Shown here: positions 30,331 to 37,331 of the stretch, one piece after another
Numbering within the stretch: position 1 is the first letter of the stretch
How the letters are laid out: every line of letters starts with the position of its first letter
DNA from: a virus
Virus record (IMG/VR): IMGVR_UViG_3300042402_003577
Span: 32,001-96,000 of that record
Length of the DNA: 64,000 nucleotides
Reading direction: 5' to 3' (one strand)
Notes under the pieces: model-generated
Told to the model about the DNA's origin: nothing
Database searches by the model: none
What the model saw: the letters and a program-made list of their open reading frames with translations, nothing else
Translations under genes and position numbers: made by a program

Positions 30331-30882
30331 TTATTTTTTATTTGCCTTGCTTACTAATTTCTCAGTGAAAGATTCTTCTCTTCCACCTCTAGCCCTAGTT
30401 TCAATGTTCTCATCTTGGTATTCCTTGTAAACCTTTCCAAAAGATTCCCAGATAAGCTTGGAGTCTTTCATCATCTTATCAAGGGCTTCAAAGGTATCTA
30501 GGCTATAAGAAAGAGTTTCTAGGAACTTATTCCTCTCCTCTATCTTATCCTGCCATACCTTCAACTCTCTTTGTATCTTTGTCATCACTACCTTTGGATA
30601 GGCATCTACCAAGTCTTCGTGATGGTCAAAATCAAAAGAATCTTCTTTTAAAAAGTATTTTTTAATGTCTTCTGCTCTCTCGTCTTTTCTAAGTCTAATC
30701 TTTGGAGACTTTATATCGCAAAAAAGATATATGGCCCACATTACTTCTGAAGTGTAGTCCTTGTTCTCTGAAGAATTATAAAAATTATCAAAAGGTTCTG
30801 TAAATTTAAATTCAGGATTCACTTCCCAAAATAAATTTCTATTAATCTCATAATCAAAATTCTGCATCAAATAATAGTCCAT
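30331..30882 (-). CDS. Conserved crAss-like protein upstream of TerL (possible small terminase)
   Basis: Helical, C-terminal RGG..ES motif; position. Confidence 0.4.
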   Translation of the reverse strand: MDYYLMQNFDYEINRNLFWEVNPEFKFTEPFDNFYNSSENKDYTSEVMWAIYLFCDIKSPKIRLRKDERAEDIKKYFLKEDSFDFDHHEDLVDAYPKVVMTKIQRELKVWQDKIEERNKFLETLSYSLDTFEALDKMMKDSKLIWESFGKVYKEYQDENIETRARGGREESFTEKLVSKANKK

Positions 30883-31782: not shown

Positions 31783-32112
31783 TTATGCTTCTATGTTTTT
31801 AGCTATCCTTAAAGATATTGCTGTAGCATTACCATGAACATAAATAAATTTATCTGAAGGAGTACTTAGTTGAATACTAAAATTTAACTCCTTGCTTTCT
31901 CCAGGTTCTATTATTGTACCTGTATTGATACCTGAAGGTGTTGTGCAACCACAACTTTTTGCTACACTTTGGCATACAAAGGTTTCATCCCCTGTATTTT
32001 TTACCATAACTGAGCCTGTAACTGTTTGATTTCTTTTACCAGTCACCACAATAACTTCTGGTTCAAATACCACTGTAGTGAGCTTTAAGTTTGGATTAAT
32101 ATTATCAGTCAT
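31783..32112 (-). CDS. DUF1573-like Ig-fold protein
   Basis: KNTG.......V..SCGCT....I.PGES motif. Confidence 0.7.
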   Translation of the reverse strand: MTDNINPNLKLTTVVFEPEVIVVTGKRNQTVTGSVMVKNTGDETFVCQSVAKSCGCTTPSGINTGTIIEPGESKELNFSIQLSTPSDKFIYVHGNATAISLRIAKNIEA

Positions 32113-36191: not shown

Positions 36192-36453
36192 ATATTTATA
36201 TTTTTTAAATTTTAAAAATACTCCAACCTATCTACTCGTCAGTAGCATCAGTTGGAGGTTCCTCCGCTTATTTTCTTCGTCAGAGTTCTAAGACCTATTA
36301 GCAGTGGGCATGTTGCACAGAGGCCGAACAGGTTCATTATTTTAACCAATAAGAATAATGTCTACTACAATTTCTACAACACTATTATAATCTTTTAATT
36401 TCATTTTTAATGTTTAATTTGTTTTAAGTTACAAATATATAACATTTTTATTT

Positions 36454-36501
36454 AAAAAGCAAGAGATAAAGAGAATATTTCTATTCTCCCTATCTACTTA
36501 C
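36454..36501 (-). terminator. Intrinsic terminator after tRNA-like element
   Basis: AGATAGGGAGAATA-GAAA-TATTCTCTTTATCT plus T-run. Confidence 0.75.
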
Positions 36502-36504
36502 TCC

Positions 36505-36627
36505 GTCAGGACAAGGATTCGAACCTGTATGATAACTTATGAGCGGTCTTAACGGGTCTTTCGAGGTTACTCACGTTATCCTTACTATTAACCTTTATTC
36601 ATGCGTCTACCAATTCCGCCACCTGAC
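36505..36627 (-). ncRNA. tRNA-like element (Leu-type D arm, no canonical anticodon arm)
   Basis: GTCAGG/CCTGAC acceptor, TGGCGGAATTGGTAGACGC D arm, ACAGGTTCGAATCC T arm, ~70-nt central segment. Confidence 0.7.
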
Positions 36628-36636
36628 TATATTATT

Positions 36637-36764
36637 CACCAAGCTTCATTCCGCGCGTCCGCGGAAGATTGGCTTAGCTATCTACCTTAACTTATGCCTT
36701 GGGCTATTCGTTTGCGTAGAAACAAGACCACAGCAAGTGAGCTGTTCTTATGGGAAGCCTCGTG
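36637..36764 (-). ncRNA. Candidate structured RNA (~128 nt)
   Basis: GC-rich; paired ends; hairpins ACAGC/GCTGT and TTCCGCG/CGCGGAA. Confidence 0.5.
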
Positions 36765-36772
36765 GTACTATC

Positions 36773-36789
36773 GTAGTCAGGACAGGATT
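36773..36789 (-). pseudogene. 3' remnant of a second tRNA-like copy
   Basis: AATCCTGTCCTGACTAC, near-identical to the 3' end of 36505-36627. Confidence 0.55.
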
Positions 36790-37201
36790 ATTTATTTTTT
36801 AACCCCTCTCTCCATTTTCTAATTATTGCATTGTGAATATCTTTACATTCTTGACATCTACAACCTCTTTTGTATGCTCCATTACTAGGATGTTTTTTAA
36901 GTTTTTCAATATCAATACCTCCTAATAATTTTATCCTTCCTTTATCAAACCCATCTTGCCAATTATCTTTAGGTGTTCCCAAAAACAAATGCTCTGGATT
37001 AACGCATTTTCTATTATCACAAGAATGACAAACATACATCCCTTCAGGTATATCTCCATTATATAACTTATAAGAGACTCTATGGGCATCTACAACTTTC
37101 CCATCTATCTTAAAAGCTCCATAACCTGATTTGCCTCTTAGAGATGCTTTCCATATCCAACAAGTTTCAGTTTTATTAATTTTATTTAAAAATCTTTCCA
37201 T
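36788..37201 (-). CDS. HNH homing endonuclease
   Basis: [30 protein letters not shown]; C-terminal GCRC..C. Confidence 0.9.
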
Positions 37202-37331
37202 ATTATTTATCCTCCTAGAATATCATCTACTACTACATCTATCATAATGAATTGTTTTTTATTATTATCCGCCTAATACATCTATCTCCACTATATCATC
37301 CTTTATAATTAATTGTTTTTTCATATTGTTT

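Follow-up and report, generated by a model that had tools for sequence, protein, structure and literature searches.

RNA1 of phage T5 (NC_005859, positions 30501-30644) is labelled in GenBank as misc_RNA, 'tRNA-like stable RNA with unknown functions'. Engineered tRNA scaffolds, used for recombinant RNA expression, carry an RNA of interest in exchange for the anticodon arm. Bacterial and phage tRNA genes, including tRNA-Leu genes, can hold group I introns. The leucyl-tRNA synthetase (LeuRS) of Escherichia coli disregards the anticodon and the variable arm, and charges a tRNA-Leu from which both are missing (PMC9976931). Homing endonucleases are found in phage tRNA regions: SegB in T4 (PMC2330249); hegA, hegC and hegD in the T5 record. 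The element analysed here lies on the minus strand of a 64,000-nucleotide (nt) stretch of viral DNA, positions 32,001 to 96,000 of IMG/VR record IMGVR_UViG_3300042402_003577 (the window; all positions given without a locus name are those of the window). It is an RNA gene in which the body of a tRNA-Leu (the frame) holds a middle (the insert) where the anticodon and variable arms would be. The element, which is clipped, belongs to a widespread T5 RNA1-like family of phage-borne RNAs that has barely been described; a literature search found no paper describing this framed RNA family.

The family was delimited with a pattern (D arm, 60-90 nt, then T loop) searched in viral contigs and species genomes. 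At least 115 viral contigs were matched; the species genomes gave 21 matches, mostly in Bacteroidota. Nearly all matches follow one plan: 7-base-pair (bp) acceptor, Leu-type D arm, middle of 57-87 nt, U48, T arm, acceptor 3′ strand, mostly A73, no CCA. The middles found under the constant frame are mutually unrelated; dozens of them occur with one frame. In 80 distinct members (alignment A3), compensatory changes affect all seven acceptor pairs and three of the five T-stem pairs. Double-change cells number 221; shuffles give 49, and none of 500 reaches the observed count. The frame is paired in 99.7% of cells, a value that becomes 30-40% when the partners are slid. None of 117 elements was called by ARAGORN; 37 of the 117 lie at most 1 kb from true tRNA genes. 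The 3′ end of the framed elements is also that of true tRNAs from these phages (A73, then CAAA, no CCA).

Members of the family are found in three cultured Sphingobacterium strains. One insert class (GTTATAAGTTGAAACGC...GTATCCGAATA...) is common to three loci: L007 (5113-5230, frame AGTCAGG), L135 (5271-5382, minus strand) and L137 (6453-6577). The last two belong to S. griseoflavum CGMCC 1.12966 and S. paludis CGMCC 1.12801, have the frames GGAGAGA and GGAAAGA, and show compensatory differences inside their shared insert. The S. griseoflavum gene has a KilA-N gene on one side and an ERF recombinase gene on the other, in a region that also encodes a PDDEXK protein and a CI-like repressor: this member sits in the early region of a prophage. 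A separate observation concerns L040 (7688-7779): the ARAGORN call 'tRNA-Ser(gga)' there covers a Leu frame of the AGTCAGG type with a middle of 39 nt, so that family members with short inserts can be taken for class II tRNAs in annotation.

The family covariance model (R1) scores the element at 76.9 bits (E 1.6e-18, model positions 1-121), the element being one of its training rows. The element is 90-98% identical (E 1e-42 to 7e-54) to sequences in four unrelated viral contigs (L012, L022, L024, L043). These alignments stop at 36629-36631 and 36505-36508, i.e. at the borders of the element; in all relatives the flanks are unrelated and the homology ends at most 3 nt from the element ends. The D arm, read as GCGGAATTGGTAGACGC with its 3′ limit at 36603 (minus strand, after U8 and G9), is identical to the family consensus and occurs once in the 105.8-kb genome. 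This genome contains exactly one tRNA-Leu-framed element and one orphan 17-nt frame end (36789-36773). The Rfam tRNA model (RF00005) gives the element 15.3 bits (E 4; gathering cut-off, 29 bits), with a span of exactly 36505-36627 and 65 nt skipped. At gathering score, no Rfam family was matched in the whole window. ARAGORN found neither a tRNA gene nor a transfer-messenger RNA (tmRNA) in the window, and no tRNA gene was matched across the whole 105.8-kb record. A blastn search of the element against 50,697 GenBank phage records gave no match, which probably reflects a limit of sensitivity for frame pieces of 26 nt.

An initial annotation, made from the letters alone, had listed an acceptor GTCAGG/CCTGAC, a Leu-type D arm, a T arm with one extra T, the lack of an encoded CCA and a following terminator; sequence and terminator scan bear out all of these. 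GGAG stands directly 3′ of CCTGAC, and pair 3-70 is U-A. The 6-bp acceptor helix stands as described, whereas the start of the element is corrected to A36628, which gives six of seven pairs by tRNA numbering (A1 is opposite a G or a gap). The absence of a 5-bp/7-nt anticodon arm agrees with the silence of ARAGORN and the stretch skipped by RF00005, and the failure of tRNA finders had been foreseen (nothing by ARAGORN, nothing by Rfam at gathering score). The hairpin GATAAC..GTTATC is present with GAG/CTC inside it, and TAACCT of its loop can also pair with the upstream AGGTTA. The metagenome search that had been proposed, with D and T arms as bait and a comparison of the middles, returned a large framed family; a search with the insert itself gave 44 contigs. 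The homologues carry this insert; they are not ordinary tRNAs beside a one-off pseudogene. Comparison thus supports the reading of a non-decoding, tRNA-shaped RNA gene.

A search with a pattern derived from the insert found the same insert class in 44 viral contigs (27 distinct sequences, including that of the window). Contigs of ~270 kb are among the carriers. The insert is always framed, in at least five kinds of frame: AGTCAGG, AGTGAGG, AGTAGAG, L139 type and L165 type. Across the 27 sequences the blocks AATAAAGGTTAA.AGTAA.GATAA, GAGTAACCT and GCTCATAAGTTAT are invariant and the frame helices covary; a stretch of 12-20 nt (36563-36544 in the window) is hypervariable. The candidate pseudoknot (Table 1) is compatible with all 27. 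Intact copies of the class reach 35.9-39.8 bits with RF00005, above its gathering score; L158 has an intact copy. When the loci of 20 relatives were searched with Rfam at E up to 0.5, tRNA matches alone were obtained and no family was found for any insert. At sequence level the insert is kept more strictly than its frame, and this suggests that the working part is the insert; in other respects the element is a family member with discrete unit borders and no anticodon arm. Two candidates within the insert were rejected: a closing stem ATGA/TCAT, which competes with helix S2 for the same TC, and a mini open reading frame (ORF; Shine-Dalgarno-like TAAGGA, then GTG at 36574), the GTG of which is replaced in relatives. 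Among ORFs clustered from the 44 loci and the window, no protein family is common to the window and the insert-sharing loci, one artefact aside.

Table 1. Features of the framed element and of its immediate surroundings. Positions are those of the window; paired segments are given as two ranges.
Feature	Position	Strand	Basis or remark
tRNA-Leu-framed RNA gene without anticodon arm	36504..36628	-	125 nt as encoded; sequence, RF00005, model R1, homology
5′ frame: A1, acceptor 5′ strand G2-G7, U8, G9, Leu-type D arm	36603..36628	-	Matches the family consensus at 26/26 positions
A at element start	36628	-	tRNA position 1
Acceptor 5′ strand GTCAGG	36627-36622	-	Sequence
U8	36621	-	Sequence
D arm GGCGGAATTGGTAGACGC	36620-36603	-	3-bp stem GCG/CGC; loop with A14, A15, G18, G19
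73-nt insert in place of anticodon and variable arms	36602-36530	-	Same class in 44 viral contigs
Candidate pseudoknot helix S1, AGGTTA/TAACCT	36594-36589 with 36569-36564	-	Complementarity
Candidate helix S2, GATAAC/GTTATC	36580-36575 with 36536-36531	-	Hairpin
Candidate GAG/CTC inside S2	36572-36570 with 36543-36541	-	Pairing
U48 equivalent (T)	36529	-	Sequence, family alignment
T arm ACAGG-TTCGAAT-CCTTGT	36528-36511	-	One bulged T, at 36514 or 36515
Acceptor 3′ strand CCTGAC	36510-36505	-	Sequence
Intrinsic-terminator-like hairpin and T run	36454..36495	-	14-pair stem 36495-36464 followed by CTTGCTTTTT (terminator scan)
TATATTTG motif, Bacteroidota-type TAnnTTTG	36439-36432	-	Downstream of the terminator
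Structured RNA motif of ~130 nt, core ACGAATAGCCCAAGGCATAAGTTA	36639..36768	-	Between orphan end and element
Orphan frame 3′ end AATCCTGTCCTGACTAC	36773..36789	-	Perfect T-stem 3′ strand, acceptor 3′ strand, A73; identical to family consensus
HNH_3 homing-endonuclease gene, 137 amino acids	36788..37201	-	Pfam HNH_3, E 4.6e-13; PHROG 1872, E 1.2e-30; upstream of the element

The 3′ end of the frame is altered in this copy. Position 73 is a G (36504) instead of the A73 of the family, and position 72 is absent or mismatched. The low RF00005 score (15.3 bits; intact copies of this insert class have 35.9-39.8 bits) is due to these two changes, the missing 1:72 pair and the replaced A73, and to the extra T in the T stem. 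The odd end is damage specific to this copy, a point that the initial annotation had missed. The last frame positions have been rewritten where pieces of an HNH_3 cassette abut. A similar cassette is found at L007 (5219-5735: terminator, TACATTTG promoter, HNH gene), where it interrupts a frame and has TCCTGTCC on both sides. The window HNH protein shares 67% amino acid (aa) identity with the L007 protein, whose gene lies inside the 3′ end of the frame. The orphan end AATCCTGTCCTGACTAC begins within the stop codon of the window HNH gene, and the same junction follows the HNH gene of L007. The stretch after the element resembles the terminator-promoter piece of L007 (70% over 192 nt, a span that includes the element; the likeness is also visible by eye), and TATATTTG within it is presumably a promoter, an assumption that draws on general knowledge of TAnnTTTG promoters in Bacteroidota. 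In the window the order of the cassette is permuted: the terminator/promoter look-alike is 3′ of the element, the gene and the displaced frame end are 5′ of it. This order could not be derived by a simple event. This HNH gene is found in one of 136 other loci.

Four lake runs (X2, X4, X7, X20; deposited 2016-2024) gave contigs that agree with the flanks and with parts of the element, in most cases exactly. Contigs from three of the four also span most of the HNH gene, and no HNH-free allele was seen in the contigs of these runs. The summed contig depth is 21-272 in the bin 36531-36651 (5′ end of the frame and part of the insert) versus ~2-15 in the flanks. Contig ends cluster at 36514, 36603-36613 and 36629-36633, and other inserts join 36532 to 36603. 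The constant frame acts as a metagenome-wide repeat and fragments assemblies.

The explanation favoured here, at a probability of about 55%, is that the element belongs to a large family of phage RNAs that are processed as tRNAs and serve as stable carriers, the insert being the working part. Transcription would take in the HNH gene and the 130-nt motif, both upstream, as well as the element, and stop at the terminator (36495-36464). The tRNA shape of the transcript would draw RNase P to its 5′ end, then 3′ trimming and the CCA-adding enzyme; siting among true tRNA genes and tRNA-like ends make this maturation the natural expectation. The product would be a stable small RNA whose insert binds a host or phage partner through the invariant blocks, probably in host takeover or counter-defence. 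The initial annotation had suggested, among other roles, a processed carrier of cargo RNA, and the distribution of parts (one insert in at least five frames, one frame with dozens of inserts) fits that reading. Intact members may be leucylated, because the LeuRS identity elements are kept and LeuRS tolerates the missing arms: of those listed for E. coli, the family retains A73, A14, A15-U48 and G18G19 (A20a is unmapped; list from PMC9976931), and intact members keep the T loop as well. The present copy probably still folds and is probably cut by RNase P. By analogy with E. coli, it is unlikely to be charged with leucine: G73 should block leucylation by the rules of that species, and this copy may therefore act only via its insert or be vanishing.

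Several points weigh against this explanation. For the element and its close relatives, we infer transcription, processing, CCA addition and charging alike. In minimum free energy the element gains nothing over shuffled sequences (z +0.74), and the arms of the cloverleaf are not recovered by folding; that the element is more than chance follows from homology, not from folding energy. Covariation does not prove the fold of the insert: S1 and GAG/CTC are invariant and S2 shows only changes compatible with G-U pairing. A target of the insert as antisense RNA was not found in the phage's own genome, where the longest perfect complement is 11 nt (shuffle mode, 12). In the family statistics, the invariance of D arm and T loop is imposed by the search pattern, and the rows of A3 were picked for a perfect acceptor. 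Without selection on the acceptor, seven of seven acceptor pairs are present in 85 of 106 distinct pattern matches; U48 (at least 90%) and A73 (63 of the 80 members) were not part of the pattern. These two nucleotides could be an inheritance from an ancestral tRNA-Leu, with no selection for charging. Last, the frame of this copy is damaged, and the copy may be a relic.

A wider version of the favoured explanation is put forward tentatively, as possible but doubtful. The Leu-tRNA body would be a universal phage chassis for swappable RNA effectors, with a separate host or defence target for every insert class. As LeuRS, RNase P and the CCA enzyme would all ignore the anticodon arm, any module would be matured, stabilised and possibly leucylated. 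The hypervariable loop would be the specificity determinant, and the modules would pass between unrelated phages, with homing endonucleases in pursuit. The element would then be one effector class, present in at least 44 phage contigs, on a chassis that has been clipped.

Among the alternatives, the one that survives best, although it is unlikely, is that the family functions elsewhere and that this copy is a relic: its frame would have been broken by the invasion of a homing endonuclease and its RNA would be unused here. The extra T in the T stem, the loss of the 1:72 pair, G73 and the resulting RF00005 score (15.3 bits against 36-40 for intact copies) are what such decay would leave; a neighbouring element is already reduced to a 17-nt stump, in a phage without tRNA genes. 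Decay has nevertheless spared the 5′ frame (26/26 consensus positions), all invariant blocks of the insert, six acceptor pairs, the T loop and the terminator. In addition, contigs of four other lake runs, deposited from 2016 to 2024, match the flanks and parts of the element, most exactly.

It is rather improbable that activity resides in the frame, with the RNA as decoy or sponge for tRNA-binding proteins of the host (LeuRS, RNase P, modification enzymes, or defence nucleases that read the elbow or the acceptor), and that the insert just blocks decoding. Phages do counter tRNA-cleaving defences with tRNAs of their own (PMC13056530), the LeuRS identity set is kept, and the frame is nearly invariant across unrelated phages. 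Conserved insert classes would be needless for a pure decoy, yet conservation is here higher in the insert than in the frame. The role as decoy for anticodon nucleases that the initial annotation had proposed is not supported: neither this insert nor those of relatives mimic an anticodon stem-loop, the usual cut site, and the inserts are mutually unrelated. Its other proposal, a decoy for synthetases, is possible for intact members (A73, A15-U48, G18G19) and unlikely for this copy, in which A73 is replaced by G73.

That the elements are selfish DNA, with frame ends acting as recombination or homing targets for the spread of cassettes and with a functionless RNA, is very unlikely. Discrete borders in unrelated contexts, an HNH cassette in frame ends both here and at L007, and the breaking of assemblies at frames are in line with this idea. 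Compensatory changes that keep the acceptor and T helices paired, however, indicate selection at the RNA level; the HNH gene accompanies just one of 136 other loci, and T5 RNA1 is a stable RNA by annotation.

A leucylated RNA with a job of its own (a tmRNA-like actor on the ribosome or a leucine donor for a transferase) is still harder to credit. Intact members with A73, A15-U48 and G18G19, the charging of arm-less tRNA-Leu by LeuRS (PMC9976931) and a pseudoknot after a tRNA-like domain, which recalls tmRNA, would suit it. Against it stand the lack of G3-U70, of a conserved tag frame (the GTG at 36574 is lost in relatives) and of any ARAGORN tmRNA call, and the G73 of this copy. A true tRNA gene whose intron is spliced out to give a decoding tRNA can be dismissed for practical purposes: group I introns do occur in bacterial and phage tRNA genes, but removal of the 73 nt leaves no anticodon arm, no anticodon stem flanks the insert, its size is far below that of group I introns, no Rfam intron matches it even at E 10, and the inserts of the family are unrelated.

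The source phage is crAss-like and from lake water. Its record is 105.8 kb long (completeness, 100% by CheckV), and the runs listed for the phage comprise 20 DNA runs from lakes or freshwater and no RNA run. The proteins encoded by the window include a major head protein, a portal, a terminase and a DNA polymerase. The nearest relative of the terminase is that of Cellulophaga phage phi14:2 (34% aa), followed by those of crAss-like phages of Flavobacterium and Bacteroides. A freshwater bacterium of the phylum Bacteroidota is the probable host. An ORF of 87 aa on the plus strand (36539..36802) is spurious, being antisense to the framed RNA itself. A 41-nt direct repeat (76% identity) is found on the minus strand at 37226-37327 and 36342-36404, its first copy being upstream of the HNH gene.

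The core (ACGAATAGCCCAAGGCATAAGTTA) of the 130-nt motif that separates the orphan end from the element is invariant; it recurs in 23 further viral contigs, in most cases immediately 5′ of a frame. The predicted fold of the motif (alignment A2) comprises four helices and 38 pairs, 16 of which show compensatory double changes; no Rfam family matches the motif. In some cases it closes with a terminator of its own (L179, L188). As it accompanies only two of 115 family loci, it is a separate RNA, which here is probably co-transcribed with the element.

If the RNAs are made and active, phages would have a modular route to many small RNAs via host tRNA maturation. The favoured explanation, if true, would account for stable phage RNAs to which no function has been assigned in decades (T5 RNA1 and, as looser cases, T5 RNA2 and T4 species 1) and would define a new class of phage RNA effectors to be sought in host takeover and counter-defence. 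Those who express RNAs on tRNA scaffolds would also gain a precedent from nature and a supply of tested frames and inserts. Because the LeuRS identity set is retained, charging can be tested sharply and cheaply; the Sphingobacterium strains (S. griseoflavum, S. paludis) offer a laboratory system alongside T5. For annotation, it matters that the Rfam tRNA model passes intact copies without flagging the missing anticodon arm and that ARAGORN misses the genes.

Compared with a class II tRNA-Leu (RF00005), the element has U8, A14, A15, G18G19, the 3-bp D stem and the UUCGAAU T loop (and intact members A73), but lacks the anticodon stem-loop and the variable arm. A link between bacterial Schlafen and class II tRNAs was considered and dropped: the enzyme cuts the anticodon arms of Lys, Met and Ala tRNAs. 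Like tmRNA, the element joins a tRNA-like acceptor/T-arm domain to a (candidate) pseudoknotted domain and has no anticodon. tmRNA differs by the absence of a D stem, by G3-U70 for alanine and by a tag reading frame, none of which is found in the element. The putative homing-endonuclease (HNH_3) gene of the window adjoins a tRNA-type gene as do T4 segB and the T5 heg genes.

Model R1 scores T5 RNA1 at 45.8 bits (E 3.8e-10, full model). In the T5 and T4 loci searched, its best full-length score for a true tRNA is 26.7 bits (T4 tRNA-Leu), and T5 tRNA-Leu gets no score. T5 RNA1 resembles the family in its acceptor-like helix, its D loop (GGAATTGGTAGAC), its T arm and the long middle that takes the place of an anticodon arm; its gene is in a tRNA region of the phage genome, close to HNH genes. 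It differs by mismatches in the acceptor and by an unrelated insert. T5 RNA2 has the T arm CAGGTTCGAATCCTG and a 7-bp acceptor, without the Leu D arm and with an unrelated insert. The same holds for T4 species 1 RNA (rnaC; 20.4 bits with R1): T arm and imperfect acceptor, no Leu D arm, unrelated insert. No tRNA-like frame was seen in T4 rnaD. One paper (PMC12685909) reports a convergent single-nucleotide polymorphism in rnaD during adaptation of a T4-like phage to a semi-permissive host, which is suggestive only. T5 and T4 infect Enterobacteria whereas the host is here probably a member of the Bacteroidota, and the likeness gives membership, not mechanism. The engineered tRNA scaffold is man-made and provides the principle alone, but its architecture is that of the element and its presumed logic is the same: the body for processing and stability, the insert as payload.

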